A model generated the notes under the pieces. That model ran no database searches and was not told the DNA's origin. It was given only the letters and a program-made list of their open reading frames with translations. This document shows positions 1,281 to 63,610 of a stretch of DNA of 64,000 nt, piece by piece (within the stretch, counting starts at the first letter, position 1; the number at the start of each line of letters is the position of its first letter). A program made the translations under genes and the position numbers. The stretch spans positions 65,011 through 129,010 of the forward strand of contig CAVZSV010000001.1 of NCBI GenBank assembly GCA_963778115.1, in the 5' to 3' direction. This DNA is from an uncultured delta proteobacterium (GTDB taxonomy: Bacteria > Bdellovibrionota > FAC87 > UBA2466).

Positions 1281-1284
1281 CAGA

Positions 1285-1318
1285 AAGGTACGGCCTACCT
1301 TCCTGTAGGCCGTGCCTT
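1285..1318. terminator. Stem-loop (GGCCTAC...GTAGGCC) between convergent genes. Candidate bidirectional rho-independent terminator
   Basis: Inverted repeat read directly from the sequence between ORF 162-1280 (+) and ORF 1324-2463 (-). Confidence 0.4.
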
Positions 1319-1323
1319 GTAGG

Positions 1324-2410: not shown

Positions 2411-2548
2411 GTTATATCCCCCAACTGAACATCTGACTGACGACTGACTGACCGGCGAGCCACCCATAGGCTCCTCCGGTATTCAAGTACGACTAGCTCA
2501 GCGCGTTATCATATTCAAGAGATTTAAATCGGGAAGGCAACGAGGGCT

Positions 2549-2878
2549 TTATTCGTCAAAGGCTTGGAGAGCCGCTTCCAGTTCCAGCTGACTCACGAGT
2601 TGGGTGCGGGGCTTTCCTTGATAAGCAAGAATGCGAAATCCATCAAAAGCGGATTTTTCTTCGTCGCCCTCAAGCGTAACGGCTTCCACTTCAATGGAGG
2701 CCAAGGGGAGAAGCGCTTCGCGTGATTCAAAAATCACAGCATCTTCTCGAGTTTCGGAATAACCGTCGAACCCGGCCTCCGCATTGGGATCGAAAACCGA
2801 CACATAGACCGGGGCTTCGATGCCATGGCGGTAGAGTTCTAAAATGTAGCCATTTACCTGATTCGCTTGGTTATCCAT
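2549..2878 (-). CDS. Hypothetical acidic protein immediately downstream of the helicase gene
   Basis: 109-aa ORF lying 53 nt downstream of the DEAD-box gene on the same strand. Confidence 0.35.
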   Translation of the reverse strand: MDNQANQVNGYILELYRHGIEAPVYVSVFDPNAEAGFDGYSETREDAVIFESREALLPLASIEVEAVTLEGDEEKSAFDGFRILAYQGKPRTQLVSQLELEAALQAFDE

Positions 2879-2931
2879 TAGGGGGTAATCAGTAGCAGAG
2901 TCTAAGGCGCTAAGAAAGTGATTAAATAAAA

Positions 2932-4068: not shown

Positions 4069-4096
4069 AAATTACAAAAGCTTGAAACTGGGCTCT

Positions 4097-8006: not shown

Positions 8007-9098
<1,092 letters not shown>

Positions 9099-9249
9099 GC
9101 GGGGCCATTGCTACAAGCCTAATTTGCAACTATTTCAGTGAGCCAAGAGGGGGGCTATAGAATATAGGAGACACTTGGCCTAAAGGCATCTATTGTATAG
9201 GGCTGAAAACGGCAAAACGTCGTTTTTACTTAATTAAGCGAGAGTACAC

Positions 9250-42062: not shown

Positions 42063-42203
42063 GAGTCCGATGGCGGGACGCAAATTTGATGGAACCTAGG
42101 TTGAGAGGGTTTGGAATTTTCACAACATTAACCGGCTACGCCGGGCTGGAGGTTAAGATTAAACTTAAGGGTAACCTTAATAGTTATGGCGGGGCGGACG
42201 GGG
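41924..42203 (+). repeat. 280-bp direct repeat, copy A. It covers the 3' end of the four-helix-bundle gene plus 140 bp downstream, and ends in the 17-bp core ATGGCGGGGCGGACGGG (42186-42202)
   Basis: About 97% identical to 49588-49867. Confidence 0.85.
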
Positions 42204-42322
42204 CGCGTTAGGCGTGATCCGCGAAGTTGAAGAGATCGTTCGAAAATAACAAATGACGACGAGACACTCGTGTTTCGCGACTGAACGAAACTGCACCGAA
42301 ATGAAAGAGATCACCATGTCAT

Positions 42323-42347
42323 GTCCCGAAACGTCCCGATCGGGACC
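42323..42347. promoter_or_regulatory. GTCCCGAAACGTCCCGATCGGGAC. A direct-plus-inverted GTCCC(R) repeat cluster, boundary element copy A
   Basis: Two direct GTCCCGA copies plus the palindrome GTCCCGATCGGGAC, located ~120 bp downstream of the 17-bp core. Confidence 0.5.
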
Positions 42348-42583
42348 GCATTAAAACGGTCTCGGTTGGACTTCGGGATACGTTTTTTCCTTTTCTGCCC
42401 GCCAACTTTTCAAGACCACATTTGAAAGGAATGAGTATGAAACTCTTTCAGTGGATAGGAAGCCTAATGGCCATCGCTTGCCTTATGGAAATTGCTCACA
42501 ACCCCAGGTACTTAATGACACTCAACAAGGGCCAGCACCACACTTGACTCGGTTTAACGACGAACTGGTAAAGGGAGGAATGA

Positions 42584-44374: not shown

Positions 44375-46888
44375 CTAAGAGGCTTCTCTCGTGGGCAGAG
44401 AGCCTTTAACAGTTTGAAGTAATTTTGAAGCCGGTGCCGAAACTTTGTTGGCTTGACCCGAATCCAGTATTCGATACGCGAGAAGCTTCAATCGGTCGTT
44501 TAGAAGCGCCCATGTTGCGGCATAAGCCCACACGAAAAACGCCCATCCCCATCCTAAGGGCGTCATAAACAGACCGTACACCGCAATCAACGTTGCTACG
44601 GTTTGTGTGCCTAGCACTGCTACCCACAAGATTCGGGCGGGACGAATAGACCAGAACGGTCCACGCGTCCTGGTCAGGAATATCGTCATATGTCCTGCGA
44701 CAGACAGTTTGAGGTACATTAGAGTTTGAATGTGATCGCGATCAAGATGAAAGACCCGCTCGCCAAGGTAGAAGAGAATGAATGCCGCTAAGACACCAAG
44801 GATGCCGAGCACAGTGGATATTCCGAGCACCAGGCGCATGTTCCACGCCTCCGGGGAATTCTTGTAATGAACTCTATCGTAAGCAATGGACAGAATAGCT
44901 CCGTCATTAAGTAAGGCCAACATGACGATCATGACTGCGGTCACTGGATAGAAGTTAAATACCAGGATCGAAAGAGTCATGAATAAGAGTACTCGCAAGG
45001 TCTCAGCGATTCGGTAAATCGCATAACTGTTCATCCGCTGAAAAATTTTACGACTCTCCTTTATAGCCGTGACTATTACGGATAGTCCCGGCGTCATGAG
45101 AACGATCGATGCCGCGGCACGAGCTGCATCCGTCGCATCCGAAACCGCGATACCGCAGTCGGCCTTCTTGAGAGCGGGAGCATCATTAACCCCATCGCCG
45201 GTCATGCCCACGATGTGGCCGCGTTTCTGGAGAACATCTACAATGTGAAACTTATGCTCCGGAAATACCTGCGCGAAACCATCCGATTTCTCAATGGAGT
45301 CTGCGAGCTCTTTAGTCTCCTCGTGCTTACTATCGGCAAACCCGCTGGCATTCAGGATATTGGTGCCCAGTCCCAACTTCTTGGCCGTTTCCCGAGCGAT
45401 TGCCATCTGGTCGCCCGTTACCATCTTGATGTTGACTCCCATCTGTCTGGCAGTGGTAATGGTCGCCTTGGCGTCTTCTCTTGGGGGATCGAAGAGCGGC
45501 AATACCCCTAAAAACTGCCACGCACCGTCGGCGCTTGTCCGAGCTACTCCAAGCGAGCGAAAACCGCGTGCGGCAAATTCATTCACGGCCTTTTCGACGT
45601 CTGCTTGGATCTTTCCGGCGTTTGCCGACAATTGCAGGACTACTTGGGGTGCTCCTTTTGTCGTCTTAAACTCTTTTCCGTCCGTTCCCTTCACCGTGGC
45701 TTCCGTACGCTTATGCACTGGATCGAACGGGAGGAAGTGAATCACCTGATAGCCCTTGAGTGCGGATTCGCTTTTCAGGCCCTTCAGAACGGCCAGGTCG
45801 ATAGTGTCTTTATCGTCCGCTCGTGACGCCAGAGCCGCACTTAGAATAAGATCATCCAACGTCGTTCCATTTACGGCGAATGGATCACCCAAGGTCAGTT
45901 TGTTCTGGGTCAAGGTGCCGGTCTTATCCGCGCACAGAACATCCACTCCTGCTAATTCCTCGATAGCGGTGAGGCGCGTCACAATCGCCTGCTCCTTGGC
46001 CAGAATTCGAGCCCCCACCGCCATCGTCACTGAAAGCACTGTGGGCATCGCTACGGGAATAGCGGCTACCGTCAACACTAGAGCAAACTGCAATGTGGTG
46101 AGAATCGGATCTCCCCTGAAGACAGCGATCGTAATAATCATCGCCACCAAAATAACGGCGAACACGATCAGATAATTACCAATCTTCAAAACGGCCTTCT
46201 GGAAATGACTGACGGTTCGTGCTTCGGCTACGAGTTCCGCGGTCTTTCCGAAAAAGGTGTTCTGACCCGTGGCATAGACGAGCGCATCTATTTCACCTTG
46301 GCGGACAACGGAACCGGAAAAGATCGCTTCCCCGGGCTTGCGCGTTGCAGGCAATGATTCACCGGTTAGCGTCGACTCATCCACTTCTATCGGGTCACCT
46401 GCAAGTAGACGCGCGTCCGCCGGTACAATGTCCCCCAATCGCACACGAATGACATCGCCCGGAACTAGATCACGCGCTGGCGCCGAGATCCACTGATTGT
46501 CGCGTCTCACCCGAGCGTTAATGGCAAGCTTTGCTTTAAGGGCCTCGATGGCGTTACCCGCCTGGCGTTCCTCCCAGAATCCCACGATGGCGTTGGAAAG
46601 TAACAATACGAGAATGATCAAGAAATCGGGCCAGTGGCGAGCTACCGCGGAAAGAATTACGGCCGCCTCGATCATCCACGGAATCGGTCCCCAAAAGTAG
46701 CTCAGAAACTTTAGAAATAGGTTCGTCTTCTTCTCTTCAATTGCGTTGGGACCATATTGGAGGAGCCGCTTCCGCGCCTCAGCTAGGCTGAGGCCGTCCG
46801 GCGATGCTCCTAACTTTTTTTCAAGTTCCGGTAGAGGCAATGATTTTAGATCGGCGTGGCCATGTGACTTAACCGTATTAGACATCAT
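44375..46888 (-). CDS. P-type ATPase, P3A (plasma-membrane H+-ATPase-like) subfamily
   Basis: Phosphorylation motif CADKTGTLT, plus TGES and MVTGDQ, and hinge GDGVNDAPALKKAD. The N-terminus (GPNAIEEKK..FLKFLSYFWGPIPWMIEAAVI) closely parallels plant/fungal AHA/PMA1 H+-ATPases. Confidence 0.9.
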   Translation of the reverse strand: MMSNTVKSHGHADLKSLPLPELEKKLGASPDGLSLAEARKRLLQYGPNAIEEKKTNLFLKFLSYFWGPIPWMIEAAVILSAVARHWPDFLIILVLLLSNAIVGFWEERQAGNAIEALKAKLAINARVRRDNQWISAPARDLVPGDVIRVRLGDIVPADARLLAGDPIEVDESTLTGESLPATRKPGEAIFSGSVVRQGEIDALVYATGQNTFFGKTAELVAEARTVSHFQKAVLKIGNYLIVFAVILVAMIITIAVFRGDPILTTLQFALVLTVAAIPVAMPTVLSVTMAVGARILAKEQAIVTRLTAIEELAGVDVLCADKTGTLTQNKLTLGDPFAVNGTTLDDLILSAALASRADDKDTIDLAVLKGLKSESALKGYQVIHFLPFDPVHKRTEATVKGTDGKEFKTTKGAPQVVLQLSANAGKIQADVEKAVNEFAARGFRSLGVARTSADGAWQFLGVLPLFDPPREDAKATITTARQMGVNIKMVTGDQMAIARETAKKLGLGTNILNASGFADSKHEETKELADSIEKSDGFAQVFPEHKFHIVDVLQKRGHIVGMTGDGVNDAPALKKADCGIAVSDATDAARAAASIVLMTPGLSVIVTAIKESRKIFQRMNSYAIYRIAETLRVLLFMTLSILVFNFYPVTAVMIVMLALLNDGAILSIAYDRVHYKNSPEAWNMRLVLGISTVLGILGVLAAFILFYLGERVFHLDRDHIQTLMYLKLSVAGHMTIFLTRTRGPFWSIRPARILWVAVLGTQTVATLIAVYGLFMTPLGWGWAFFVWAYAATWALLNDRLKLLAYRILDSGQANKVSAPASKLLQTVKGSLPTREAS

Positions 46889-47163: not shown

Positions 47164-47568
47164 GTGGATATGACTATTGGCAAACTGGCGGAGGCAGCGG
47201 GGGTCGGCGTGGAGACCATCCGTTTTTATGAGCGAAAAGGTCTCATCAAAAAGCCGCAGCGCAAAGACGGCGGATTTCGTTACTACTCAGACGAGGAAGC
47301 ATCAAGAGTACGGTTTGTAAAACGGGCCCAGGAGTTGGGGTTCACGCTACGCGAAGTGAAAGATCTCCTGGACCTTCAATCCAAGCGCAAGGTGACCGGC
47401 TCGCAGGTCCAAAAGAGGGCTCAAGAGAAAATAACCGAGATCCATAAAAAGATTTCTGACTTGAAACAAATGGAAGCGTCACTCCAGCGCCTTGCCGAAG
47501 TCTGCGGAGATGGCGAACAAGCCATCCGAGAATGCAAAATTTTCGACTGTTTTGGAAAAGGTTGCTGA
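47164..47568 (+). CDS. MerR-family metal(loid)-responsive regulator with a C-terminal Cys cluster
   Basis: MerR HTH (IGKLAEAAGVGVETIRFYERKGLI...ELGFTLREV), a coiled coil, then C-x8-C...C-x5-C. Confidence 0.85.
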   Translation: MDMTIGKLAEAAGVGVETIRFYERKGLIKKPQRKDGGFRYYSDEEASRVRFVKRAQELGFTLREVKDLLDLQSKRKVTGSQVQKRAQEKITEIHKKISDLKQMEASLQRLAEVCGDGEQAIRECKIFDCFGKGC

Positions 47569-47582
47569 AGAAAGGATTAATT

Positions 47583-48023
47583 ATGAGACCTCACTTATCA
47601 ATGAATGTGAAAAGCCTCGAAAAGTCGGTCGACTTTTACCGGACGGTATTTGGAGTTGAGCCCCAAAAGCGATCCTCTACCTACGCAAAATTTGACCTCA
47701 ATGACCCCCTTTTTAATTTCACCATGCACGAAGTTTCTGAAGGAAGAGATGCGAGTCGGGTCAATCATCTAGGTATCGAAGTCGGAAGCGTTGAAGAGGT
47801 ATTAGCCTGGAAGAAACGGCTTGAAACGAAGAAAATACAAACTTTGTCCGAGGAGAACGCCGAATGTTGTTTTGCGAAGCAGGATAAATTTTGGTTCCAA
47901 GACCCTGACGGTAATTCCTGGGAAGTCTTTTTTGTTCACGAGCAGCTGCCCGTTGAAGGAGCGGAACCCCCAAGAACAGTATCGAAAGCGGGAGCCTGTT
48001 CTACCGCCTCCAAGTGTTGTTAG
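47583..48023 (+). CDS. VOC/glyoxalase-fold protein of the ArsI/CadI family. The ORF opens at 47532
   Basis: VOC fold with a vicinal Cys pair (ENAECCF), as in ArsI C-As lyases and CadI, plus a C-terminal Cys-rich tail (ACSTASKCC). It lies in an ars operon context. Confidence 0.65.
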   Translation: MRPHLSMNVKSLEKSVDFYRTVFGVEPQKRSSTYAKFDLNDPLFNFTMHEVSEGRDASRVNHLGIEVGSVEEVLAWKKRLETKKIQTLSEENAECCFAKQDKFWFQDPDGNSWEVFFVHEQLPVEGAEPPRTVSKAGACSTASKCC

Positions 48024-48032
48024 TACCCATAG

Positions 48033-49088
48033 ATGAATCTCGTTAAAAAGAAACTGTCATTTCTCGACCGCTATCTGACTCTATGGGTTTTCCTGGCAAT
48101 GGGATTAGGACTCCTTCTAAGTATCCGGGCACCCGGGCTCACTAACGCCCTTACCAGAATGAGTTATGGAACTACGTCCTTACCCATCGCCATCGGTCTT
48201 ATTTTGATGATGTATCCGCCCTTAGCAAAGGTGCGGTTCGAAGAACTTCCGCCGGTTTTTCGAAATCGAAGAGTTTTGCTTCTGTCCTTAGTTCAAAACT
48301 GGATTTTGGGACCGCTTTTAATGTTTGTTCTCGCGGTTATTTTCCTAAGGGATCGGCCGGAATATATGGCAGGGCTCATATTGATTGGGCTCGCCAGGTG
48401 CATTGCCATGGTCATCGTCTGGAACGAGCTTGCCGAAGGAAGCACTGAGTATTGCGCGGGGCTTGTCGCCTTCAATTCTATTTTTCAGATCCTCTTTTTC
48501 CCACTTTACGCCTATGTCTTTCTAACGGTACTTCCCAATGTTCTTGGGATTCAATCTTTGAAATTAGATGTCTCTATTGGAGAAATAGCGAGGTCCGTAG
48601 GAGCCTATCTGGGCATACCATTTTTGGCGGGGTTTCTGACACGCTTTATTCTACGGCCCCGAAAGGGAGCTGATTGGTATGACAAGAGTTTCGTGCCGTT
48701 TATCAGTCCAATCACGCTTGTAGCGCTCCTTTTTACAATCGCCGTGATGTTTTCCCTTAAAGGAAATCAGGTCGTTGAACTCCCGATGGAGACGTTGAGA
48801 ATCGCGCTGCCGATGGCGATCTATTTCATCGTGATGTTTTTCCTGTCTTTTGCCTTGAGCGAAAAGGCGGGCGCCAGTTATCCACAGGCTACCAGTCTTT
48901 CTTTCACCGCAGCCTCAAACAATTTTGAGTTGGCCATTGCCGTCGCGATTTCTACCTTTGGGCTCCATAGTGGGGTTTCCTTTGCGACCGTAATCGGTCC
49001 CCTTGTTGAGGTGCCCGTGCTGATTTCACTCGTTCGGGCCGCTTTTTGGTTTAAGAAACGCTGGCCTCTGAAGGCAGAAATGAGGTGA
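48033..49088 (+). CDS. acr3: Arsenite efflux permease, ACR3 family
   Basis: The 10-TM bile/arsenite/riboflavin transporter fold with ACR3 signatures ([43 protein letters not shown]). Confidence 0.9.
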
Positions 49089-49092
49089 TGAA

Positions 49093-49560
49093 ATGAATAT
49101 CCTATTTATGTGTGTTGCCAATTCAGCTCGCAGCCAAATGGCCGAAGGGTTAGCCAAAAAAATATTTGATTCTTCAGTTCGGGTTGAAAGCGCCGGTTCG
49201 AATCCAAGCAAGGTCAATCCATTTGCGATTAAGGTAATGGAAGAAGTCGGGGTGGACTTAACTCAACACTATTCCAAATCCTACGATGAGCTGGAGCCGG
49301 CATTCATCGTCAAACTCGATTATGTCATCACCCTTTGTGCCGAGGAAGTGTGTCCTCAAATGGTATCTCGGGCAAAAAAAATCAACTGGCCTCTCTCTGA
49401 TCCTGCTAACAAAGCGGAAAATGACGAAATTCAATTGGCGACCTTTAGGGAAACTCGTAACTCACTCCTTTCTCGCCTTAGGGATTTCGCGAAGCAAAAT
49501 GGGATTAAATGGAAAAGCGGCGAAAGCGCGACCCACTGTTCTCTATCTCGACCGTCATAG
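49093..49560 (+). CDS. arsC: Arsenate reductase ArsC (LMW phosphotyrosine-phosphatase family)
   Basis: ILFMCVANSARSQMAEG is the CX5R P-loop of the LMW-PTP. It is the last gene of the ars operon. Confidence 0.75.
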   Translation: MNILFMCVANSARSQMAEGLAKKIFDSSVRVESAGSNPSKVNPFAIKVMEEVGVDLTQHYSKSYDELEPAFIVKLDYVITLCAEEVCPQMVSRAKKINWPLSDPANKAENDEIQLATFRETRNSLLSRLRDFAKQNGIKWKSGESATHCSLSRPS

Positions 49561-49587: not shown

Positions 49588-49867
49588 GGTGTTTGAGTGT
49601 GTAGCGATTTTGGATTTGGTAAGGACGATGGAATTGGTGGAAGAAGGTATCGATGATTTGGAAATTGAGTTGGAGCATTTGGGGAAGATGTTGTCGGTGT
49701 TGATTCGATTTATTGAGACTAATCCGAGGAAATAAGAGTCCGATGGCGGGACGCAAATTTGATGGAACCTAGGTTGAGAGGGTTTGGAATTTTCGCAACA
49801 TTAACCGGCTACGCCGGTCTGGAGGTTAAGATTAAACTTAAGGGTAACCTTAATAGTTATGGCGGGG
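49588..49867 (+). repeat. 280-bp direct repeat, copy B. It contains a 5'-truncated copy of the four-helix-bundle gene 3' end (a gene fragment) and the 17-bp core at 49859-49875
   Basis: Near-identical to copy A. The ORF-track ORF 49286-49735 is a read-through artefact fusing the arsC antisense/out-of-frame region to this fragment. Confidence 0.85.
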
Positions 49868-49993
49868 CGGACGGGATTCTTTAGGACGATTTTGCAACGC
49901 GTTGGATCGTAACGATTATTAATAATCACAAAAGCTTACTCGTAAATTCGACATGACCGAAAGCGCACCAAACTGCCACTACTTGCCATTCCT

Positions 49994-50013
49994 GTCCCAC
50001 AGCCGTCCCACAC
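49994..50013. promoter_or_regulatory. CCTGTCCCACAGCCGTCCCACAC. GTCCCACA direct repeat, boundary element copy B
   Basis: Same architecture and offset from the core as copy A. It lies 57 bp upstream of the xis-like gene. Confidence 0.5.
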
Positions 50014-50069
50014 TTGAACCGTACGAACCGACCTTAACGAACACTTAGGCACACAATGAAGGAGGTACT

Positions 50070-50303
50070 ATGACTGACAAAAATGAGCCCGAGCAGATGG
50101 CTGCAGAAAATGACTATCGATTAGTTTGGACGTTTGATGATGTTGCCCGTGAGCTTCAGTGCTCTAAACGCCTGGTTGAAAAGCTTGTGCAAAAAGATCG
50201 TATTCCCCATGCAAAGGTGGGACGGCTTGTTCGGTTCAGTCCAGCCAGAATTAAAGAATGGATAGAGAAAGAGGGACGAGATGAATGCCTTATGCACCAT
50301 TGA
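50070..50303 (+). CDS. Excisionase/AlpA-family HTH DNA-binding protein
   Basis: 77 aa, ...FDDVARELQCSKRLVEKLVQKDRIPHAKVGRLVRFSPARIKEWIE matches the Xis/MerR-like winged-HTH 'excisionase family' pattern. Confidence 0.6.
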   Translation: MTDKNEPEQMAAENDYRLVWTFDDVARELQCSKRLVEKLVQKDRIPHAKVGRLVRFSPARIKEWIEKEGRDECLMHH

Positions 50304-50763
50304 TAGCGGCAGTAATTCCATCGAACGTAAAAGAGAGAGCCCATTTCGCTTTGGCGGCGAGAATAATCTGTGGCGAAGTACAGTCCTTATTGATCTTAAC
50401 GGCAATTATCTTTTTTCCCAATTCAATCGCCTTTTCAATTTCCCATTTCACCCATTCGCTGGCGTAAGTAGTGCCTCCAATTAGACAGAGAAAATGAGTC
50501 GCACCCGAGATCTTTGCGGAAATGGCTCGCTTAATAACCGCGGCATTAGTACTGTCGATAGAAATATCGGCCGATTGATCGCTCATTCCAAAGTCGAAAT
50601 CTCCATTCTTGTCCCAAGCAAGTAGCAGGTTTTTATAATGTTTGTCGTTATCAAAATCATAGCTGATAAAAATTCTTGTTTTTGCCACTCTTGCAACCCT
50701 CCCAAAAAGTTCTTTATTGTGGTGAGTCGTGATAAATATGTAAAGGAATTTCTCCCGGGTCAT
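50290..50763 (-). CDS. TIR-like protein of the ThsB/DUF1863 type
   Basis: RIFISYDFDND...W opening, with CLIGGTTYASEWVKWEIEKAIELGKKIIAVKIN. This closely parallels Bacillus ThsB (CVLIGSQTFNRRWVRYEIMKSIEKGNKIIGIHIN). Confidence 0.7.
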   Translation of the reverse strand: MTREKFLYIFITTHHNKELFGRVARVAKTRIFISYDFDNDKHYKNLLLAWDKNGDFDFGMSDQSADISIDSTNAAVIKRAISAKISGATHFLCLIGGTTYASEWVKWEIEKAIELGKKIIAVKINKDCTSPQIILAAKAKWALSFTFDGITAAINGA

Positions 50764-50862
50764 GGCGCTGCGCTCCAGGAATGGAAGAGGGACTTCGGGA
50801 TAACACTTTCCGTGGAAGAGAATGGGGGCTACGCGTTGAACAAGCCGCTTTGCTTCGTGCTA

Positions 50863-52197
50863 ATGCCATTTGGGGAAAAAGTGGACACGACAGGCACTAA
50901 AGTCGATTTCGATCGGGTTTATCAAGAGGTAATCGCGCCGGCGATTTCCGAATCAGGTATGGAGTGTATCCGTGCTGATGAAGAACAGGTCGGGGGCATC
51001 ATTCATAAACCAATGTTTGAGCGCTTAGTTCTTTGCGAATATGCCGTTGTTGATTTAACGACCGCCAACGCTAACGTGTTTTACGAACTAGGCGTTCGGC
51101 ACGCGGTTCGTCCTTGGAGCACGGTGCTGTTGTTTTCAGCTCCAACTCGATTACCTTTCGATGTTGCTCCCCTGCGCGCGATGCCATATAAGTTGCAAAA
51201 AAATGGCCACCCTGCTGAAGTTACTAAAACGAGGGCGTCCCTTGTAAAACGACTAAATACGGCACGAGCGGCAGCGAAAGATAAGCCCGCTCACGACAGT
51301 CCCGTTTTTCAGCTGCTCGATGGATTCCCCGAGATCGACCATACTAAGACCGATGTGTTTAGAGACCGAGTGAAATACTCGGAGGGAATAAAGCAGAGTC
51401 TCGCTGAAGCCAGGAAAAAAGGGCTCGACGCAGTAAAGGCGGTTGAAACCACTCTTGGCGACATTGCGACTCAAGATATTGGTGTAGCCGTGGACCTATT
51501 TCTTTCTTATCGTGCCGTTAGCGCCTGGAAAGATATGGTCGATCTGGTTGGGAAAATGGCGCAACCGCTTGCTGCGACGGTGATGATTCAAGAACAACTT
51601 GCTTTCGCTTTGAATCGTCTCCGAAAGAGTGATGAGGCGGAAGTCGTCTTGGTGAATTTGCTAAAGACCAGAGGAAAGAGTAGCGAGACGCTAGGGATTT
51701 TAGGACGCGTTTACAAAGATCGGTGGCTGGAAGCAGAAAAGTCCGGAGAGCAAAAGGTCGCTCAAGGTTGGCTCGAAAAGGCTATTGAGACTTACCTTCG
51801 CGGCTTTGAGGCCGATTGGCGTGATGCCTATCCGGGAATCAATGCGGTTACATTAATGGAAGTAAGGACCCCACCCGATCCTAGACGAAAAAAGCTGATT
51901 CCCGTTGTGATGTACTCAGTTGAACAACGCCTCGATCGTGATGAGCCGGACTATTGGGACCACGCCACACTTCTTGAAATCTCCGTACTAGGTCGAGACG
52001 AAATCACTGGCAAGGAGGCGCTAAACAATGCCCTTATCTCTATGCGAGAGGCATGGGAGGGCACGTCAACGGCTGGAAATTTGCTCATAATCCGAAAAGT
52101 AAGGGAGACGCGCAATGAGACCTTCAATTGGGCCATGGAAGCTGAGCAAGCCATTACGGAGCGGGTGCGAGTCATATCGCAGGCTGCAAAAAACTGA
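50863..52197 (+). CDS. Two-domain protein with an N-terminal nucleoside-2-deoxyribosyltransferase-like (TIR/SLOG-related Rossmannoid) domain and a C-terminal alpha-helical TPR-like domain. The ORF opens at 50638, with the likely start at MPFGEK
   Basis: FVLMPFG...VDFDRVY...ADLTTANANVFYELGVRHAV resembles the NDT-family catalytic-Glu motif (D..(S)GT.FElG). The remaining ~300 aa are helical-repeat. It lies divergent to the ThsB-like gene. Confidence 0.45.
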   Translation: MPFGEKVDTTGTKVDFDRVYQEVIAPAISESGMECIRADEEQVGGIIHKPMFERLVLCEYAVVDLTTANANVFYELGVRHAVRPWSTVLLFSAPTRLPFDVAPLRAMPYKLQKNGHPAEVTKTRASLVKRLNTARAAAKDKPAHDSPVFQLLDGFPEIDHTKTDVFRDRVKYSEGIKQSLAEARKKGLDAVKAVETTLGDIATQDIGVAVDLFLSYRAVSAWKDMVDLVGKMAQPLAATVMIQEQLAFALNRLRKSDEAEVVLVNLLKTRGKSSETLGILGRVYKDRWLEAEKSGEQKVAQGWLEKAIETYLRGFEADWRDAYPGINAVTLMEVRTPPDPRRKKLIPVVMYSVEQRLDRDEPDYWDHATLLEISVLGRDEITGKEALNNALISMREAWEGTSTAGNLLIIRKVRETRNETFNWAMEAEQAITERVRVISQAAKN

Positions 52198-52232: not shown

Positions 52233-52982
52233 TCAAGACCCTTTCGGTGAGTCTAGATGCCGCAATAATTCAATTGCGGCCTTAAGCGGATCTTTGGGCA
52301 GCTTAGGAAATAATCTACTTGCTTCTCCTCCGAAGTCATTCGGAATAGGCGAATCATGTCGATGAGCTTCACTAATCGCAATAGCATGATTCATCTCTAG
52401 CGGTATAAACACTACCTTCTTATTCGCATCTATCGCGCCTTTAATTTCATCGGCAGCCACGCGTCCACCTCCGATTCCAATAAACACGTCACCGGTCTCA
52501 ATAATCACACCAGATGTAGGAGATAATCGCTGTTTTTGAGGATCGATCCCCCCCCAGAGACTATCTTCGATAATGAAAACTTTGTCGACTGACCTACAGG
52601 ATTGTATTCCCTTCTCCTTGGCTATCGAGGAGATAATTCCGACTGTTGTAAAACCTAATTCTTTCGCGATCGGGTATATCTCTCCAATACCGTCGCAGCT
52701 GGCCCCAATTGTGATAACCACTTTCCGTGGATTCAACTCCTTTAGAATCGTTCTTGCGTACCGTTTCATGGTCATTGGATTCTCGTAACCGAGGGAAGAG
52801 AACCCTAAGAAGGTCACACTTTTTTTACCGGCTGATTGGTAGTATTTTTTGATCGGCTCGCTGGGATTTGATCCTTCCAGTTCGCTCATGACGGTGACCG
52901 TATATATCGAACAGCTAAGTATTACTAGCAGGGTTAAGCGGTCTGGAAGCGAACGCCAAGACTTCCATTTCTCCATCGACAT
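52233..52982 (-). CDS. Membrane-anchored SLOG/LOG-family Rossmann-fold protein (TM-SLOG)
   Basis: N-terminal TM helix (LTLLVILSCSIYTVTVM). The Rossmann core with G-rich loops (VVITIGASCDGIGE...VFIGIGGGRVAADEIKGA) is reminiscent of the LOG/SLOG PGGxGTxxE motif. It is the last gene of the TIR operon. Confidence 0.5.
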   Translation of the reverse strand: MSMEKWKSWRSLPDRLTLLVILSCSIYTVTVMSELEGSNPSEPIKKYYQSAGKKSVTFLGFSSLGYENPMTMKRYARTILKELNPRKVVITIGASCDGIGEIYPIAKELGFTTVGIISSIAKEKGIQSCRSVDKVFIIEDSLWGGIDPQKQRLSPTSGVIIETGDVFIGIGGGRVAADEIKGAIDANKKVVFIPLEMNHAIAISEAHRHDSPIPNDFGGEASRLFPKLPKDPLKAAIELLRHLDSPKGS

Positions 52983-53009
52983 AATCCTTTTTGCTCTATG
53001 CTCTACCGC

Positions 53010-53567
53010 CTAAGAAACGTTTCTACTCATTTTCTCTCGACTGTTTATTATTTTGCTTTTGTCGGAACTCTTACGAATCGCTTCTTCGATCGCCGTTTTG
53101 ATGACAGCGGGATCGGAAGTCCAATCAATATGGTGAATGTATCCCGATACAATGTTCTCGTGCAAGCGATCGGCTACAATTGCAGAATTGTTCTCACCTC
53201 TCGTAACCGAGGGTAAAATAATGCCGAGTACTGCGTGTTCAAGGTGGAGCGTTGAGTAAATTTCCCAGTCCACATACTTTCTCTTCCAGGTTTCTGCCCC
53301 GCACAAAACTACGGTAACAGATGAGCCTTTAATGAACTCTTCGCGTATTCGACGATTAACGTATTCCGTATCGTTACTACGAATACTGCCATCGACAGAC
53401 TGGTCATAGAACACCTCATAGTTGGACGAAAAAAGTTTCTTGAATTGTTCAAACCAGGTCCAGTCGTTTGCGTGGTGGAAGCTAATAAATACCTTGCGTT
53501 TGGTCTGTTGGTTCAATATCCCGGAAAGACCTGCGAACCTGGTCGCAAAGCGATTGTCAGAACTCAT
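53010..53567 (-). CDS. TIR-like protein of the ThsB/DUF1863 type
   Basis: KVFISFHHANDWTWF...TVVLCGAETWKRKYVDWEI is the same signature as ThsB. Confidence 0.7.
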   Translation of the reverse strand: MSSDNRFATRFAGLSGILNQQTKRKVFISFHHANDWTWFEQFKKLFSSNYEVFYDQSVDGSIRSNDTEYVNRRIREEFIKGSSVTVVLCGAETWKRKYVDWEIYSTLHLEHAVLGIILPSVTRGENNSAIVADRLHENIVSGYIHHIDWTSDPAVIKTAIEEAIRKSSDKSKIINSREKMSRNVS

Positions 53568-53576
53568 ATTAGTCCC

Positions 53577-54116
53577 TTACAGCTTTAACCAATTCTTCAA
53601 TAGCGTCACGCTCCTCGTTCCGCTGGGTTCCGGATCTACTACCCACTGCTTCCCCGAATATCCAGTTACCCTAATAAATCGAATTACCGGGTACAGCCCT
53701 AGATACTCTCTTCTCGCCCACGCCTCTTCAGTAGAAGAGCGCCCCATGGGAAGCAACGCCACATTCCCAACTCCTTTGTGCCCATCACCCATTCCCAGCT
53801 CCCACGGGATCCACCCCGACCTGGAGCTATTCTCAGACATCATTATAACGAGACGGCCAGAACGACGTAACTCGCTACGAAGGATTTCCGCTGTCTCGGC
53901 GGACGGGTTCTCTGGCAGGCGCTTATCGCCGTTATCGGCATAAACAACGCCTCCGTGCTCTCGAAGAAAATCGCTTACGCCCCTTACATATAAGTCATCT
54001 TTGGATGAATGGGAGAGGAAAATTTTTTGCCCTCTTCCTTCCGCGAGCCTTTGATCGTTGGTGAGTGCCTCAGACTTACGAATCTTGTTAATGTCGTCGA
54101 AGGTAATATAAGCCAT
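53577..54116 (-). CDS. TIR domain protein (TIR_2 type)
   Basis: KIFLSHSSKD (box 1), ...LVIMMSENSSRSGWIPWELG (the SxWC/EL box), and a conserved Glu. Confidence 0.75.
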   Translation of the reverse strand: MAYITFDDINKIRKSEALTNDQRLAEGRGQKIFLSHSSKDDLYVRGVSDFLREHGGVVYADNGDKRLPENPSAETAEILRSELRRSGRLVIMMSENSSRSGWIPWELGMGDGHKGVGNVALLPMGRSSTEEAWARREYLGLYPVIRFIRVTGYSGKQWVVDPEPSGTRSVTLLKNWLKL

Positions 54117-54124
54117 AGTAATTT

Positions 54125-55024
54125 TTACTCACCCCTACGGGCCATCCACATAGTGTGTTCTCTGGAAATCGCGTTTTCTGTATTCTTCACAAAGACCCCC
54201 AAATCATTGTCGCTATTCACAGAGTTTGAATCAACCTCAACCAAGCTTAGTTCCTGAGCCGTCAGCGCGTAGACTTGAGCGAGCTCCTGAAATTTGCGTA
54301 TTTGCATCCAAGAAAATAGTGCTATGGCTAACGCCGAAAAGAAACCAGTCATATTGCGGCTTTCCGGTTCCTTAATTAAATAGAGAGCCCATAAAAATCC
54401 AATTAGCTGGGTTGCAATAGCACAACGAAAAAATGTCGTTTCCTTTGACCTATTGAACTCCGCCTTGCCTGCATACCAGTTTTTTTGGTCCATCAAACGA
54501 AATTTCAAGTATATTGTTTTCCGCTCATTCGTGGTGGAAGCCCTTATCTTTCGCATTAGGTCGGTGATTTGTGGACCTTGATTCGTTGATGTTTGAAAAT
54601 CGAACGCAAGATATTGCCTTTCGGTGAGAAATTCCGAAAGAGCGCTGGCAAACTTCCGATCAGCATCGCCAGATGCGAGTTGAGTCGGATAAGGATCAGC
54701 GCCCATCATATATTTCCAGGAAAGGCTTTTCACCGATTCTGCGACTGCACGCGCACCGTACCAAGTTTTCTCATAGCGAGTAAATTTGAGCGCTAGAGAA
54801 ACAAGGAAGGCCAAGAGAAATAGGAAGGCACCCGCAATCGCAAACCAAGACTTACCCTCATGCTGAAGGGAGCTAAAGGAAGATAGCAAGACTCCTAATA
54901 GAACCAGGATAAGATCTGCTTTCACCAAACGAGCATACATTCCCTGCGCCTTGAGTGAGGCATTGTTTGCAATATGCCAGAGGACCGGCAGGTCCCTATC
55001 CTGCAGACTAGTTGTCATGAGCAT
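54125..55024 (-). CDS. 4-TM membrane protein, a candidate SLATT-like pore/effector domain protein
   Basis: Two TM hairpins (LILVLLGVLLSSF/WFAIAGAFLFLLAFLVSLAL and FFRCAIATQLIGFLWALYLI/FFSALAIALFSWMQI) are separated by soluble helical segments. It is tightly linked (8-9 nt spacers) upstream of the TIR genes. Confidence 0.4.
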   Translation of the reverse strand: MLMTTSLQDRDLPVLWHIANNASLKAQGMYARLVKADLILVLLGVLLSSFSSLQHEGKSWFAIAGAFLFLLAFLVSLALKFTRYEKTWYGARAVAESVKSLSWKYMMGADPYPTQLASGDADRKFASALSEFLTERQYLAFDFQTSTNQGPQITDLMRKIRASTTNERKTIYLKFRLMDQKNWYAGKAEFNRSKETTFFRCAIATQLIGFLWALYLIKEPESRNMTGFFSALAIALFSWMQIRKFQELAQVYALTAQELSLVEVDSNSVNSDNDLGVFVKNTENAISREHTMWMARRGE

Positions 55025-55046
55025 CCTACTCCTCGTTGAATCGCGA

Positions 55047-55328
55047 TTAAGCTACCTTTCGAGGTACGAGTCTGATCTCATAGCCAAGAACGCGCAGTAC
55101 GTTTAGTAATATATCAAACGTGATCTTGGCAGTACCAATGCCCGATTCGATCTGGGCTATCCTTCCTTGGCTGACTCCAAGCTTTTTGGCTAATGCGGCC
55201 TGAGATAATTTTCGTTCCTGGCGCGCCTCAGAAATTAGCTCGATCAACTTCTGCTTCTCTCGCACTTCCGCTGGGTTTACTCCGAGCGATTTCGCCAATT
55301 TCTCAAAATTTGTTTCTTTCCAAGCCAT
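55047..55328 (-). CDS. higA: XRE-family HTH antitoxin (HigA-like)
   Basis: LSQAALAKKLGVSQGRIAQIESG is an XRE HTH. It lies 2 nt downstream of the toxin gene. Confidence 0.8.
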   Translation of the reverse strand: MAWKETNFEKLAKSLGVNPAEVREKQKLIELISEARQERKLSQAALAKKLGVSQGRIAQIESGIGTAKITFDILLNVLRVLGYEIRLVPRKVA

Positions 55329-55329
55329 C

Positions 55330-55662
55330 TCAAATCTCCTTAAGTCTTCTCAGAATCAATTCTACGTCTTCCTTGGGAATCGCTTGGGTCTTCTTCTTCA
55401 TCGCATGAACCATGTAGATCGCGTCACTCTTCTTGATGAAGTAGAAAAACCTCACTTGCCCACCTCGATCCTTGAATCTCAATTCATGGAGACCGTGATG
55501 GATGCCCGATAAATTCCGACTGACGGGCATTGAGAGCACTTTGCCCTGTTCCAGGAGCGAGATCGCATCCAAGAACTCACCTTGGACCTCTTCCGAGCAC
55601 TCGTGAAGAAACGTTTCCACCGGGCTACGACCTGATGATGTTTCATAGAAGCGTATCTTCAC
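55330..55662 (-). CDS. higB: RelE/ParE-superfamily toxin of the HigB type
   Basis: 110 aa with toxin upstream of antitoxin, which is the HigBA gene order. ...LHELRFKDRGGQVRFFYFI...IYMVHAMKKK matches the HigB/gp49-like pattern. Confidence 0.7.
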   Translation of the reverse strand: MKIRFYETSSGRSPVETFLHECSEEVQGEFLDAISLLEQGKVLSMPVSRNLSGIHHGLHELRFKDRGGQVRFFYFIKKSDAIYMVHAMKKKTQAIPKEDVELILRRLKEI

Positions 55663-55782
55663 TTTTCCTATTATAAGCTATAACTAATAATTAGTTCAAG
55701 CTAATACTCAAAACAACGACAACGGGTACGAGTCGAGGACTCGTCCGTTTCTGATTTAACTTATTGATATCATTGAGAAAAA

Positions 55783-55799
55783 ATGGCGGGGCGGACGGG
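55783..55799. repeat. Third copy of the 17-bp core ATGGCGGGGCGGACGGG
   Basis: Exact match to the terminal 17 bp of repeats A and B. It is followed by ~200 bp homologous to the post-core segments of A and B. Confidence 0.8.
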
Positions 55800-55872
55800 A
55801 CTCGGACGGCGGAGATTTTTAACGCATTGAGTTAATTCAAATAACAAAAACTAACAACGAGTTACTTGTTAG

Positions 55873-55996
55873 TGTGTCCCGCACAGAAACGCACCAATTA
55901 GCCCCTTTTACCCCTATCCTGTCCCACAAACGTCCCACAAAAAAGCGAGTGGGACGGGTACGAGCGTAGGCGGAGTTTGGCGTGGGACGGTTTCGT
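55873..55996. repeat. ~125-bp repeat, copy C, containing GTCCCACAAACGTCCCACAAAAAAGCGAGTGGGAC (55921-55955)
   Basis: About 90% identical to 63474-63598. Homologous to the motif regions of A and B. Confidence 0.8.
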
Positions 55997-56022
55997 CCCC
56001 TGATGGGGGCAATCTCCCGTGA

Positions 56023-63357: not shown

Positions 63358-63473
63358 TGTGCCCTCATTTACAAAGTGCGCTCCTCTTTTATACCGCGCT
63401 GATCACGCTGACTAAGAAAAAGAAGCAGCGCTGAACCTCGATTGCAAGCGCGACCGATGCCGAGGAACATTCG

Positions 63474-63598
63474 GTGTGTTCCGCACGAAAACGCACCAAC
63501 TACCCCCTTTTACCCCTATCCTGTCCCACAAACGTCCCACAAAAAAGCGTGTGGGACGGGTACGAGCGTAGGCGGAGTTTGGCGTGGGACAGTTTTAT
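63474..63598. repeat. ~125-bp repeat, copy D, containing GTCCCACAAACGTCCCACAAAAAAGCGTGTGGGAC at 63523-63557
   Basis: About 90% identical to copy C. No 17-bp core lies upstream of it. Confidence 0.8.
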
Positions 63599-63610
63599 CC
63601 CCTCGTACCG

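Follow-up and report, generated by a model that had tools for sequence, protein, structure and literature searches.

The question raised by this locus is whether it encodes a new variant of Thoeris, with a SLOG protein that is anchored in the membrane, faces the cytoplasm, senses a nucleotide made by TIR proteins and gates a separate SLATT pore. This had been proposed, in a preliminary description of the window (the 64,000-nucleotide stretch of uncultured delta proteobacterial DNA analysed here), for six minus-strand genes at 52233-55662. The six open reading frames were confirmed at exactly these coordinates, and the same six-gene set is also present on an independent 6-kb Logan contig. The domain assignments were essentially right, and the broader claim is upheld that the locus is for Thoeris-type defence, with TIR signalling and a SLATT effector that disrupts the membrane. 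The reading that we favour, with a probability of about 0.68, is that these genes encode an abortive-infection system of the Thoeris family with a SLATT effector (type VII-like), in a multi-TIR form and carried on a 5.9 kb repeat-bounded cassette, and that the SLOG protein is not the gating sensor of SLATT. It would thus be mostly a known system in a multi-TIR variant, with one puzzling accessory gene, the SLOG-like gene.

The six genes are co-directional and tightly packed, as had been described, although the measured gaps (1, 22, 8, 9 and 27 nt) span 1-27 nt rather than 2-27 nt. Each gene is preceded by a Shine-Dalgarno-like sequence, and no convincing internal terminator was found within the operon. 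There is one strong promoter, a sigma-70-like TTGAAC-18 nt-TATAAT on the minus strand at 55670..55699, which lies directly upstream of higB and is the best match in the region (10/12). Within it, at 55682-55696, can be read a 7-1-7 palindrome, AACTAAT-T-ATTAGTT, which is likely to be the HigA operator.

The first two genes were correctly recognised as a toxin and its antitoxin. The higB-like gene (55330..55662, minus strand, GTG start) encodes a 110-aa toxin of the Gp49/RelE-ParE superfamily (PF05973, 8.1e-21), and the higA-like gene (55047..55328, minus strand) a 93-aa XRE/HTH_3 antitoxin and repressor (HTH_3, 3.1e-15), which also matches NCBIfam antitoxin subfamilies (7e-13). The toxin-first order and 1-nt gap are typical of HigBA, and in order, sizes, gap and promoter palindrome the pair resembles other type II modules of this kind; unlike them, it is co-directional with a defence operon and probably co-transcribed with it. 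HigBA had been counted as part of the system's architecture, yet it was found in none of the seven other SLATT loci examined (0/7). It is a separate toxin-antitoxin module outside the conserved system. By way of the palindromic operator in the sole good promoter, the pair probably controls its own expression together with that of the rest of the transcript, and it probably helps in retention of the cassette.

Downstream of this pair, the gene at 54125..55024 (minus strand; alternative ATG at 55018) encodes a 299-aa protein with four TM helices in two hairpins, as the SLATT-like assignment had it. Both SLATT_3 (PF18184, 1.1e-36; NCBIfam SLATT_3, 5.8e-44) and SLATT_1 (PF18181, 1.1e-30) match in this single protein, which is not a transporter. 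We regard this double-SLATT protein as a ThsH-like effector by analogy, on the basis of the common "SLATT" annotation and of the similarity of a nearby TIR (TIR3, below) to a validated partner TIR. The protein has 229 homologs. The window was compared with ten SLATT-locus contigs from seven independent loci, and in 7/7 of these loci one or more TIR genes adjoin SLATT. Two other lineages (L003/4/5 and L006/7) keep the order SLATT-TIR1-TIR2, with identities of 51-66%, on elements with an integrase or recombinase. TIR1-like genes adjoin SLATT in L003, L006, L137 and L138, and TIR3-like genes in L008, L010 and L138, with L008 and L010 being simpler, two-gene TIR + SLATT operons. Judged from these sequences, the conserved core is the trio of the ThsH-like SLATT protein, TIR1 and TIR2.

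Two different TIR proteins had been noted in the operon and a third, ThsB-like one at 50290-50763; all three are borne out, and in each the glutamate that aligns with the catalytic Glu of BcThsB is kept. TIR1 (53577..54116, minus strand, 179 aa, Glu106) is a ThsB-type protein of the TIR_2 type (FLSHSSKD...WIPWELG), matched by TIR_2 at 1.9e-7, over its full length by the PADLOC ThsB model PDLC00436 at 1.1e-48, and by PDB 8BTN_B at 1.6e-19. Its homologs adjoining SLATT in L003, L006 and L138 are 55-60% identical to it. TIR2 (53010..53567, minus strand, 185 aa, Glu102) is ThsB-type of the DUF1863/ThsB_TIR type (PF08937, 2.2e-22) and aligns to BcThsB (6LHY) across the catalytic Glu; homologs of 64-66% identity come after TIR1 in L003 and L006. 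TIR1 is 46% identical to a TIR from a type IV context and belongs to a promiscuous TIR cluster, which is paired with effectors of types I, IV, V and IX. Of the few references to which TIR2 was compared, the nearest is a type VI (2'cADPR) TIR, with 40% identity. Therefore the product of TIR1 and TIR2 may be something other than cADPR. TIR3 (50290..50688, minus strand; PF08937, 5.5e-19; Glu108 in the numbering of the longest ORF, which runs to 50763) probably starts at GTG 50688, ahead of which is a GGGAGGG Shine-Dalgarno sequence. With the ThsB of B. licheniformis SCCB 37, from a validated type VII system, it shares 55% identity over the TIR domain (E=3e-36).

TIR3 is divergent from a plus-strand gene at 50812..52197, the likely start of which is GTG 50812 or TTG 50836 within a longest ORF from 50638. 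The encoded TPR-S / MAP3K_TRAF_bd protein (PF13281, 4.4e-43; PF20308 TPR-S, 6.3e-27) has a TIR/DrHyd-like N-terminal domain, which PADLOC reports as "Effector TIR" at 6.4e-8. It is a candidate ThsI-like type VIII effector, and with TIR3 it looks, by analogy, like a second, type VIII-like module. All nine genes of the locus, these included, fall within one 5.9 kb cassette between two copies of a dispersed intergenic repeat, the left at 49793..50050 and the right, upstream of the higB promoter, at 55717..56000 (both plus strand). The repeat blocks ATGGCGGGGCGGACGGGAYTC and TGTCCCACANNCGTCCCACA are common to both copies and equally spaced in them (0.01 and 0.05 expected by chance), and further copies occur at about 42.2 and 63.4-63.6 kb. 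The leftmost gene of the cassette encodes a small DNA-binding protein of the HTH_17 / excisionase family (50070..50303, plus strand; PF12728, 4e-10; TIGR01764 "excise", 2.8e-10); in L003 and L006, too, an HTH_17 gene comes before the SLATT module, beside the integrase or recombinase.

It is the last gene of the operon (52233..52982, minus strand; 249 aa, or 247 from the second ATG) that carries the proposed novelty. The LOG/SLOG Rossmann assignment was right as to fold: the protein model is clearly SLOG-fold, with TM1055/TIGR00725, MoCo carrier protein and LOG as closest folds. The protein has no Pfam Lysine_decarbox/LOG match and is distinct from housekeeping LOG; it belongs to an uncharacterised, unannotated family of some 400 cluster representatives. 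Unlike the LOG / TIGR00725 / MoCo-carrier clade of the SLOG superfamily, this family usually has a signal peptide and is enriched near TIR/TPR-S genes. The anchor facing the cytoplasm that had been ascribed to the window protein is not what its one hydrophobic segment (aa 16-34, N-terminal) resembles: with a net charge of +2 on the N-flank and -1 on the C-flank, the segment looks like a signal peptide or an N-in signal anchor. Since the family mostly bears classic signal peptides, some of them lipoprotein-like, the SLOG-like domain probably lies outside the cytoplasm, a heuristic prediction that combines hydropathy, charge bias and homolog signal peptides; the signal is absent in about half of the short metagenomic relatives.

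How, then, does this gene relate to the system? The idea that a cytoplasmic SLOG sensor gates the SLATT pore has several points in its favour: ThsA binds 3'cADPR via its SLOG domain, the Pfam name for SLATT is "SMODS and SLOG-associating", and the gene is co-directional with TIR2, 27 nt beyond it with no terminator between. Fused "SLOG and 4TM" effectors also occur beside TIRs, although these are untested or negative candidates (Yirmiya et al., bioRxiv 10.64898/2025.12.03.692087). Apart from the predicted extracytoplasmic position of the domain, the idea is opposed by the family HMM, which found 0 members on the ten SLATT-locus contigs (seven independent loci), the closest included; the nearest SLATT-TIR-TIR relatives stop at a terminator or an apparent tRNA 3' end without a SLOG gene. 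Further, TIR + SLATT alone suffice in validated type VII systems (Yirmiya et al.). A SLOG-gated SLATT is thus highly improbable. We consider it just as improbable that the functional unit is a type III-like Thoeris of several TIRs and a SLOG effector, to which SLATT has been added as a second effector. The P. aeruginosa L0872 locus has a TIR_2-type TIR, ThsB-type TIRs and a SLOG protein in a parallel order (TIR_2 type, ThsB type, SLOG), and its TIR1 and ThsB-type TIR are 35% (E=7e-25) and 31% identical to window TIR1 and TIR2. However, the type III SLOG protein, that of locus L130, is Pfam LD_cluster3, without a signal peptide or BLAST similarity to the window protein, and the 379-aa TIR_2 protein of type III is missing from the window; nor does TIR1 homology define a Thoeris type, since the same TIR1 type is also found beside SIR2-STALD ThsA proteins (L132).

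The two other possibilities concern the SLOG-like gene alone. Tentatively, it could be an extracytoplasmic accessory of the TPR-S (ThsI-like)/TIR3 module, or of wider TIR/TPR-S conflict systems, that is merely transcribed behind the SLATT operon, which would fit with our preferred explanation of the core. Its stop codon is 35 nt from that of the TPR-S gene, albeit in convergent orientation, so that the two are not co-transcribed. Among 79 family loci, a TPR-S homolog lies within 8 kb in 6 (immediately adjacent in L018, L072 and L085; the one in L066 is 55% identical to the window TPR-S protein) and a TIR-domain gene within 5 kb in 10, giving a union of 13/79, these being raw counts without a background model from a home-made TIR HMM and crude ORF calls. 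Export signals are present in 10 of those 13 SLOG-like genes, and the enrichment makes some link of the family to TIR biology plausible. Against this, the other 66 loci have no such neighbours and heterogeneous contexts, and we know of no mechanism that would let an exported SLOG protein take part in signalling inside the cytoplasm. That the gene is an unrelated passenger, encoding an exported protein that binds nucleotides or cofactors and plays no part in defence, is unlikely: the closest folds, the housekeeping-looking neighbours at most family loci and the fact that, among the SLATT systems examined, only the window locus has the gene would all suit a passenger, but its place inside a compact repeat-bounded defence cassette, tightly behind TIR2, and the enrichment near TIR/TPR-S genes would not. 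Nor would the fusions seen in relatives, where the partners are Zeta-toxin, calcineurin-like phosphoesterase and NMNAT-like domains of the sort that typify conflict systems centred on nucleotides. Given that the gene follows TIR2 by 27 nt without a terminator, and given the enrichment of its family around TIR genes, its product may yet have a working part in the system.

With a type VII-like SLATT system as the preferred reading, analogy with the validated systems suggests how the locus could work. One or more of the TIR proteins would sense a phage component, and the TIRs, with their conserved catalytic Glu, would turn NAD+ into a cyclic ADP-ribose-type signal, presumably canonical cADPR in the case of TIR3 at least. 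The 4-TM double-SLATT protein would bind this signal directly on its cytoplasmic face, oligomerise and breach the inner membrane so that the infected cell is stopped. Having several TIR lineages probably widens the range of phages sensed, and one signal may serve both the SLATT effector and the TIR3/TPR-S module. The SLOG-fold protein, probably exported, would come from a family with a loose link to TIR/TPR-S systems and might act on an extracytoplasmic nucleotide by binding or cleaving it.

The architecture had been thought undescribed, yet both of its main pairings are known: TIR + SLATT is type VII, and multiple TIRs + SLOG is type III. TIR-SLATT neighbourhoods were noted computationally earlier, and it was predicted that SLATT, in association with TIR genes, serves as a membrane effector under the control of ADPr derivatives (PMC9503650). 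The type VII systems that have been validated are two-gene, anti-phage TIR + SLATT operons without a SLOG protein, in which the SLATT effector is ThsH, the TIRs make canonical cADPR as the signal, and cADPR is toxic to cells with the system (Yirmiya et al.). The window shares with them a defence island in which one or more TIR genes adjoin the gene for a membrane protein with a SLATT domain, but it adds two TIR lineages directly behind SLATT, has its type VII-like TIR3 displaced by 3.4 kb to beside the TPR-S gene, and has an operon headed by HigBA and ended by a SLOG-fold gene. In type VIII (ThsB + ThsI, "CMP hydrolase + TPR"), the TPR-S domain is highlighted in ThsI, and rare loci hold both ThsH and ThsI (Yirmiya et al.). 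The window pair is alike in its TPR-S domain with a TIR/DrHyd-like N-terminal domain and in its ThsB-type TIR; however, its two genes diverge and do not form one operon, the "CMP hydrolase" identity of ThsI could not be carried over to that N-terminal domain, and TIR3 is nearer to type VII ThsB than to type VIII ThsB (55% versus 36%). Type III (P. aeruginosa L0872, effector ThsD; van den Berg et al. 2024, through citations) has multiple TIRs of the same two types (TIR_2, FLSHS...PWE[IL]G, and ThsB/DUF1863) and, after them, a SLOG protein that is not of the STALD kind; it differs in lacking SLATT, in its extra TIR protein and in its SLOG effector, which is cytoplasmic, of LD_cluster3 and without detectable sequence similarity to the window protein. 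With type I (ThsB + SIR2-SLOG ThsA), the locus has in common the principle that TIR proteins produce the signal, the ThsB-type TIR fold with its catalytic Glu, and a SLOG-fold protein in the locus.

Six open reading frames run along the minus strand from 55662 to 52233, at exactly the coordinates proposed in the preliminary description, and encode in order HigB, HigA, a membrane protein with two SLATT domains, TIR1, TIR2 and a SLOG-like protein; profile searches bore out the earlier domain calls for HigB, HigA, SLATT and the two TIR types. The genes are as tightly packed as had been claimed, but the spacers measure 1, 22, 8, 9 and 27 nt, so that the lower bound falls below the 2 nt first given. 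A purine-rich Shine-Dalgarno-like sequence lies 5' of every one of the six, and no convincing terminator was found within the run. The only strong promoter match across 49.5-56.2 kb (TTGAAC-18-TATAAT, a 10/12 match) is directly 5' of higB, and this promoter contains the palindrome AACTAAT-T-ATTAGTT (55682-55696). The identical gene set is present on an independent 6-kb contig of a public sequencing run. At the head of the run is a putative HigBA pair, in which a Gp49/HigB-family toxin gene (PF05973 at 8e-21 in the profile search) stands directly 5' of an XRE antitoxin gene (HTH_3 at 3e-15) with a 1-nt gap. HigA would repress the operon via the promoter palindrome, and HigBA would stabilise the cassette.

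The SLATT protein is 299 aa long and carries a SLATT_3 domain (1e-36) followed by a SLATT_1 domain (1e-30), with four TM helices in two hairpins; its gene lies 8 nt upstream of TIR1. It has 229 detectable homologs, the closest from a named organism being that of Bacteriovorax stolpii (45% identical), and no relative was found on viral contigs. Gene neighbourhoods were read at seven independent SLATT loci from other genomes or metagenomes, and a TIR gene adjoins SLATT in all seven. At one (L003/4/5) a SLATT gene whose product is 55% identical to that of the window is followed by TIR1 (60%) and TIR2 (64%) homologs; integrase and HTH_17 genes lie upstream, and 3' of the TIR2 homolog are about 240 nt without an open reading frame, ending in what appears by eye to be a tRNA 3' end. 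At another (L006/7) the order is HTH_17, SLATT (52%), TIR1 (56%), TIR2 (65%), a PIN-like protein of 149 aa and a TIR protein of 366 aa, the gene run being closed by a clear intrinsic terminator and adjoined by a serine recombinase. Simpler arrangements are the two-gene TIR and SLATT operons of L008 and L010 (Bacteriovorax stolpii), whose TIR resembles TIR3 of the window. A TIR3-like gene, SLATT and a TIR1-like gene (55%) are found together in L138, the SLATT homolog of L136 (Priestia) is flanked by TIR genes on both sides, and that of L137 sits amid five. This last locus (L137:4996-9300) is a very dense multi-TIR island in which one of the five TIRs also matches Nuc_deoxyrib_tr, and genes for a Metallophos protein, a deoxynucleoside kinase, a thymidylate synthase and a homolog of the TPR-S N-terminal domain described below lie near its SLATT gene.

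HigBA (tblastn, 1e-3) and members of the SLOG-like family (family HMM against six-frame translations, E<0.01) are both absent from all seven of these loci. The check on neighbourhood conservation therefore gave a divided answer: SLATT-TIR1-TIR2 is kept in L003/4/5 and L006/7, but the HigBA and SLOG-like genes are not. Since these are missing from the seven other SLATT loci read, the conserved functional unit, as far as gene order can define it, is SLATT plus one to several TIRs, which in the subclade of the window takes the form SLATT-TIR1-TIR2.

TIR1, of the TIR_2 type, aligns over its full length with the PADLOC ThsB model (1e-48) and also matches PDB 8BTN_B (1.6e-19); TIR2 is of the ThsB_TIR/DUF1863 type (2e-22) and was aligned to BcThsB (6LHY). 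Loss of the catalytic glutamate would have argued against signalling by these proteins, but it is retained in all three TIRs, Glu106 of TIR1, Glu102 of TIR2 and Glu108 of TIR3 aligning with the catalytic residue of BcThsB, E85. The three proteins were compared with 20 TIR-domain sequences from Table S1 of a recent preprint (Yirmiya et al., 10.64898/2025.12.03.692087). For TIR3 (50290-50763), ThsB from the validated, cADPR-responsive type VII system of B. licheniformis SCCB 37 is a close relative (55% identity, E=3e-36), and a type VIII ThsB is a more distant one (36%). The best matches of TIR1 among the 20 references are a type IV-context TIR (46%) and type III TIR1 (35%, E=7e-25); both fall in the promiscuous cluster 2612357774, whose TIRs partner effectors of types I, IV, V and IX (10.64898/2025.12.03.692087). 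TIR2 comes nearest to a type VI TIR (40%). TIR1 and TIR2 thus fall in lineages known with other signals, and only TIR3 has a close validated relative.

Metagenomic relatives of TIR2 (45-63% identical) are usually followed by a protein of ~205-220 aa that has no Pfam match and a single TM helix, oriented N-out/C-in by its charges; such pairs, with TIRs 47-62% identical to TIR2, occur in L092 (partner gene at 8495-9157), L093, L094, L100, L101, L107, L109 and L113/L114, inside RM/BREX-like islands and often with a second TIR upstream. This single-TM partner may be an uncatalogued Thoeris effector. The idea that it (~215 aa) is the DUF6650 protein of type VI is unsupported, given the lack of any Pfam match. 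More distant TIR2 relatives are followed by a TIR and an LD_cluster2 SLOG effector, which is the type IX layout. A SLATT or SLOG-like gene like those of the window was never seen after the metagenomic relatives.

A gene for a 519-aa TPR-S protein lies 3' of the six-gene run in convergent orientation, with 35 nt between the stop codons. The protein matches MAP3K_TRAF_bd (PF13281, 4.4e-43) and TPR-S (PF20308, 6.3e-27). In type VIII Thoeris the effector ThsI is annotated as 'CMP hydrolase + TPR', a TPR-S domain has been pointed to in it, the signal is as in type VII, and rare loci contain both ThsH and ThsI (10.64898/2025.12.03.692087); by its domains the neighbour gene appears to supply an effector of this TPR (TPR-S) kind. 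As to the CMP-hydrolase (DrHyd) domain of ThsI, the N-terminal domain of the neighbour gives a PADLOC 'Effector TIR' match at 6.4e-8 and no Pfam match, one of seven homologs matches Nuc_deoxyrib_tr weakly (0.031), a single-sequence AlphaFold model reached a pLDDT of 41, too low for use, and hhalign against the TIR and SLOG-like alignments gave no signal. The longest TPR-S reading frame overlaps TIR3. Sequence features place the probable start of TIR3 at GTG 50688, which is preceded by a GGGAGGG Shine-Dalgarno and gives the N-terminus MAKTRIFISYDFDND..., like that of Bacillus ThsB. For the TPR-S protein they point to GTG 50812 or TTG 50836, shortly ahead of the conserved CFVLMPFG strand; these choices would therefore leave a divergent promoter region of ~125-150 nt between the two genes. 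TIR3 and TPR-S would form a second, type VIII-like arm, which may share cADPR with SLATT.

The last gene of the run (52233-52982) encodes the SLOG-like protein, whose structural model shows a clear SLOG Rossmannoid fold in a fold search. Among comparisons with known structures only that search gave matches; PDB sequence and profile searches with the protein or its alignment returned nothing significant, and a word-indexed homolog search returned the protein itself only. An exhaustive HMMER search recovered a family of 404 cluster representatives (243 at E<=1e-10; 30-48% identity), on no member of which does any Pfam or NCBIfam model score above threshold; Pfam LDcluster4 gives 19.4 bits on the window protein and 18-21 bits on homologs, against a gathering threshold of 26.3. 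That the protein is a housekeeping LOG (cytokinin riboside 5'-monophosphate phosphoribohydrolase), an identity that would have counted against the earlier proposal, was checked by profile search and rejected: there is no LOG/Lysine_decarbox match, and TIGR00725 scores 16 bits against a cut-off of 107.

The TM anchor attributed to the SLOG-like protein is borne out by a single hydrophobic segment (aa 16-34), but a cytoplasm-facing orientation is not; the flanks carry net charges of +2 (N-terminal) and -1 (C-terminal), a bias that predicts N-in/C-out, and the Rossmann domain is therefore predicted to lie outside the cytoplasm. A possible lipoprotein signal (ILSC at C24) is only borderline because charged residues are too close, and the segment is best described as a signal peptide or anchor. 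Short members of the family typically begin with classic Sec-type signal peptides, some of them lipoprotein-like, and a hydrophobic N-terminal segment is present in 25/50 metagenomic representatives and 65/79 reference-genome genes. A conserved cysteine stands a few residues past the signal peptide in many members from genomes, above all those of Burkholderiales and other Proteobacteria (L015, L018, L043, L053, L059, L063, L072 and L084; for example AGAC-DGP, AGAC-EPP, ATGC-QPP and LTAC-ESM), which suggests lipoprotein anchoring or a periplasmic disulfide. Long relatives (380-1550 aa; P0006, P0007, P0008, P0009, P0012, P0014 and P0019) are multidomain fusions with one to three copies of the domain, whose partners are calcineurin-like phosphoesterase, cytidylyltransferase-like (NMNAT-type), Zeta-toxin kinase with LSDAT_prok (an LSDAT-type SLOG), GNAT, AHSA1 and DUF6829 domains. 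Fusion to such domains shows that cytoplasmic versions also exist, and the partners suggest that the domain handles a nucleotide, perhaps one related to NAD.

What, then, does the SLOG-like protein do? An alignment of 11 sequences found 79 genomic loci of the family across many phyla, and in none of them is there a homolog of the window SLATT, HigBA or ThsB-type TIRs. A TIR-domain gene lies within 5 kb in 10/79, including TIR-FGE-sulfatase, TIR-WD40, TIR-NACHT/NB-ARC and LDcluster4-like-TIR fusions; a homolog of the window TPR-S protein occurs in 6/79, next to the SLOG-like gene at L018, L072 and L085, and the one at L066 shares 55% identity with the window protein. Two loci (L015:6615-7883 and L066:5669-6964) encode proteins of ~420-430 aa with an N-terminal, sub-threshold LDcluster4-like SLOG and a TIR_2 domain. 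Together, TIR and/or TPR-S neighbours are found at 13/79 loci, as raw counts with no formal background, and 10 of the 13 SLOG-like genes concerned carry export signals. TIR genes are rare, and chance neighbours would be expected at well under one of 79 loci. With 13/79 loci and no SLATT in any, the family is therefore linked, on genomic context, to TIR/TPR-S conflict genes and not to SLATT, and a cytoplasmic sensor role is unlikely. Only three loci of the family were found on viral contigs.

The proposal that the SLOG protein senses a TIR product in the cytoplasm and gates the SLATT protein is contradicted both by conservation, its gene being absent from the other SLATT loci, and by the predicted extracytoplasmic topology; although the two genes do share an operon-like run, we consider this the least likely of the options and very improbable. 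The likeliest of the options, though still less likely than not, is that the protein is an extracytoplasmic accessory of TIR/TPR-S systems, a reading that agrees with its neighbours and export signals. Alternatively it may be a passenger, which is doubtful; its absence from other SLATT loci would fit, and its recurrence beside TIR and TPR-S genes would not. On an improbable reading, the exported protein truly belongs to TIR signalling systems as an additional part that works outside the cytoplasm, where it could bind or cleave TIR-made ADP-ribose-type signals in the periplasm or medium and then quench them or relay them to kin as an alarm; on the same reading the signals could arrive through the SLATT breach or from lysed neighbours. 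Were this so, Thoeris-type immunity would gain its first extracytoplasmic arm, with a new SLOG family of ~400 clusters tied to TIR and TPR-S proteins, and if the link is functional TIR-derived nucleotides may act beyond the cytoplasm. Whichever role applies, a SLOG-fold family with no curated model, mostly bearing signal peptides and enriched beside TIR/TPR-S genes, is the most original lead from this locus.

The nine genes (the run of six, TIR3, TPR-S and an HTH_17/excisionase-family gene at the left edge) form a compact defence cassette bracketed by repeat copies at 49793-50050 and 55717-56000. On this layout the SLOG-like gene counts as part of the cassette's cargo and not among the housekeeping genes of the host. 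The bracketing copies share, in the same order and ~130 nt apart, a 21-nt block (20/21) and a 23-nt block (21/23), with tandem GTCCCACA motifs. They belong to a dispersed intergenic repeat of ~200-250 nt with core blocks ATGGCGGGGCGGACGGGAYTC and TGTCCCACANNCGTCCCACA, further copies of which lie at 42120-42400 and 63385-63600; the window contains 17 occurrences of GTCCCAC, where 5.3 would be expected. Recurring every 6-8 kb, the copies delimit three cassettes, for metal/arsenic resistance, Thoeris and a two-component system. To the left of the Thoeris cassette a P-type ATPase gene (44375-46888) precedes an arsenic-resistance-type operon (47164-49560) of a MerR-family regulator, a glyoxalase-fold protein, an SBF/ACR3-like permease and an LMW phosphatase/ArsC-like protein. 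The repeats could be att-type scars left as islands accreted in tandem, or sites bound by the HTH_17 protein; searches of the window returned no tRNA, Rfam family or recombinase homolog. Thirteen window proteins that were looked up are all singletons or near-singletons at 90% identity, known from one NCBI/ENA contig and Logan reads. Packaging of defence genes between repeat copies, beside resistance and regulatory cassettes, hints at a mechanism of modular exchange.

If the locus works like the validated type VII systems, its TIRs, once triggered by phage, would make a cyclic ADPR-type signal from NAD+, which would directly activate the double-SLATT protein; this would then permeabilise the membrane and abort infection, and several TIR lineages would broaden sensing. 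The earlier assignment to a Thoeris-like TIR system with a membrane effector thus stands as to class, on this analogy, but not as to SLOG gating or novelty. In December 2025 a screen of ~600 million proteins led to seven new, validated Thoeris types (10.64898/2025.12.03.692087). Type VII joins a TIR gene to the SLATT-domain effector ThsH and involves no SLOG protein; the TIRs make canonical cADPR on infection, added cADPR arrests cells carrying the system, and the model of ThsH is an oligomer that spans the membrane and has nucleotide pockets where protomers meet (10.64898/2025.12.03.692087). 'SLOG and 4TM' candidates tested in the same study gave no defence in E. coli (10.64898/2025.12.03.692087). 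Aravind's group had earlier reported that TIR and SLATT genes share conserved neighbourhoods, at times together with an HTH gene, and had predicted SLATT to be a permeability effector regulated by ADPr derivatives (PMC9503650). The general architecture, proposed to be undescribed, was therefore already on record.

Type III, in the preprint's summary of van den Berg et al. 2024, combines several TIRs with a non-STALD SLOG effector (10.64898/2025.12.03.692087). The window does contain multiple TIRs of the L0872 types (35% for TIR1; 28-31% for TIR2 and TIR3 against type III ThsB-type TIRs). However, in L130, where TIR1 is 96% identical to the published type III TIR1, the SLOG is an LD_cluster3 protein without a signal peptide, whereas the window protein has a signal peptide or anchor; no BLAST similarity was found between the two and their Pfam affinities differ. 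Type III membership was therefore rejected. The L130 locus (395-5105) reads TIR_2, ThsB_TIR, ThsB_TIR, TIR_2 (379 aa), LD_cluster3 SLOG, a 252-aa TIR-like protein and a 138-aa 2-TM protein, and in another Pseudomonas genome (L132:6001-11799) an L130-type TIR1 (86% identical) stands beside two SIR2-STALD ThsA genes; these loci illustrate how one TIR lineage swaps effectors.

The locus is useful for asking which TIR feeds which effector, with ThsH-like and ThsI-like effectors and three TIR lineages at one natural site, and whether a single SLATT pore answers to different cyclic ADPR isomers. The stated mismatch with canonical type I and II Thoeris was confirmed: no SIR2 or STALD match, as in the SIR2-STALD(SLOG) ThsA of type I, was found in the nine cassette proteins, and there is no Macro domain in the cassette to correspond to the Macro and TM effector of type II. 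As in type VII, TIR genes with the catalytic glutamate are present and a SLATT-domain membrane protein, a candidate ThsH, is encoded next to TIR1. By analogy, therefore, the locus is a Thoeris-type TIR-to-membrane-effector system of an already described kind; what is new is a multi-TIR SLATT system with a co-resident ThsI-like module, a HigBA head and a SLOG-family tail, and its SLATT-TIR-TIR form, conserved in at least three lineages, extends the SLATT-effector Thoeris type.
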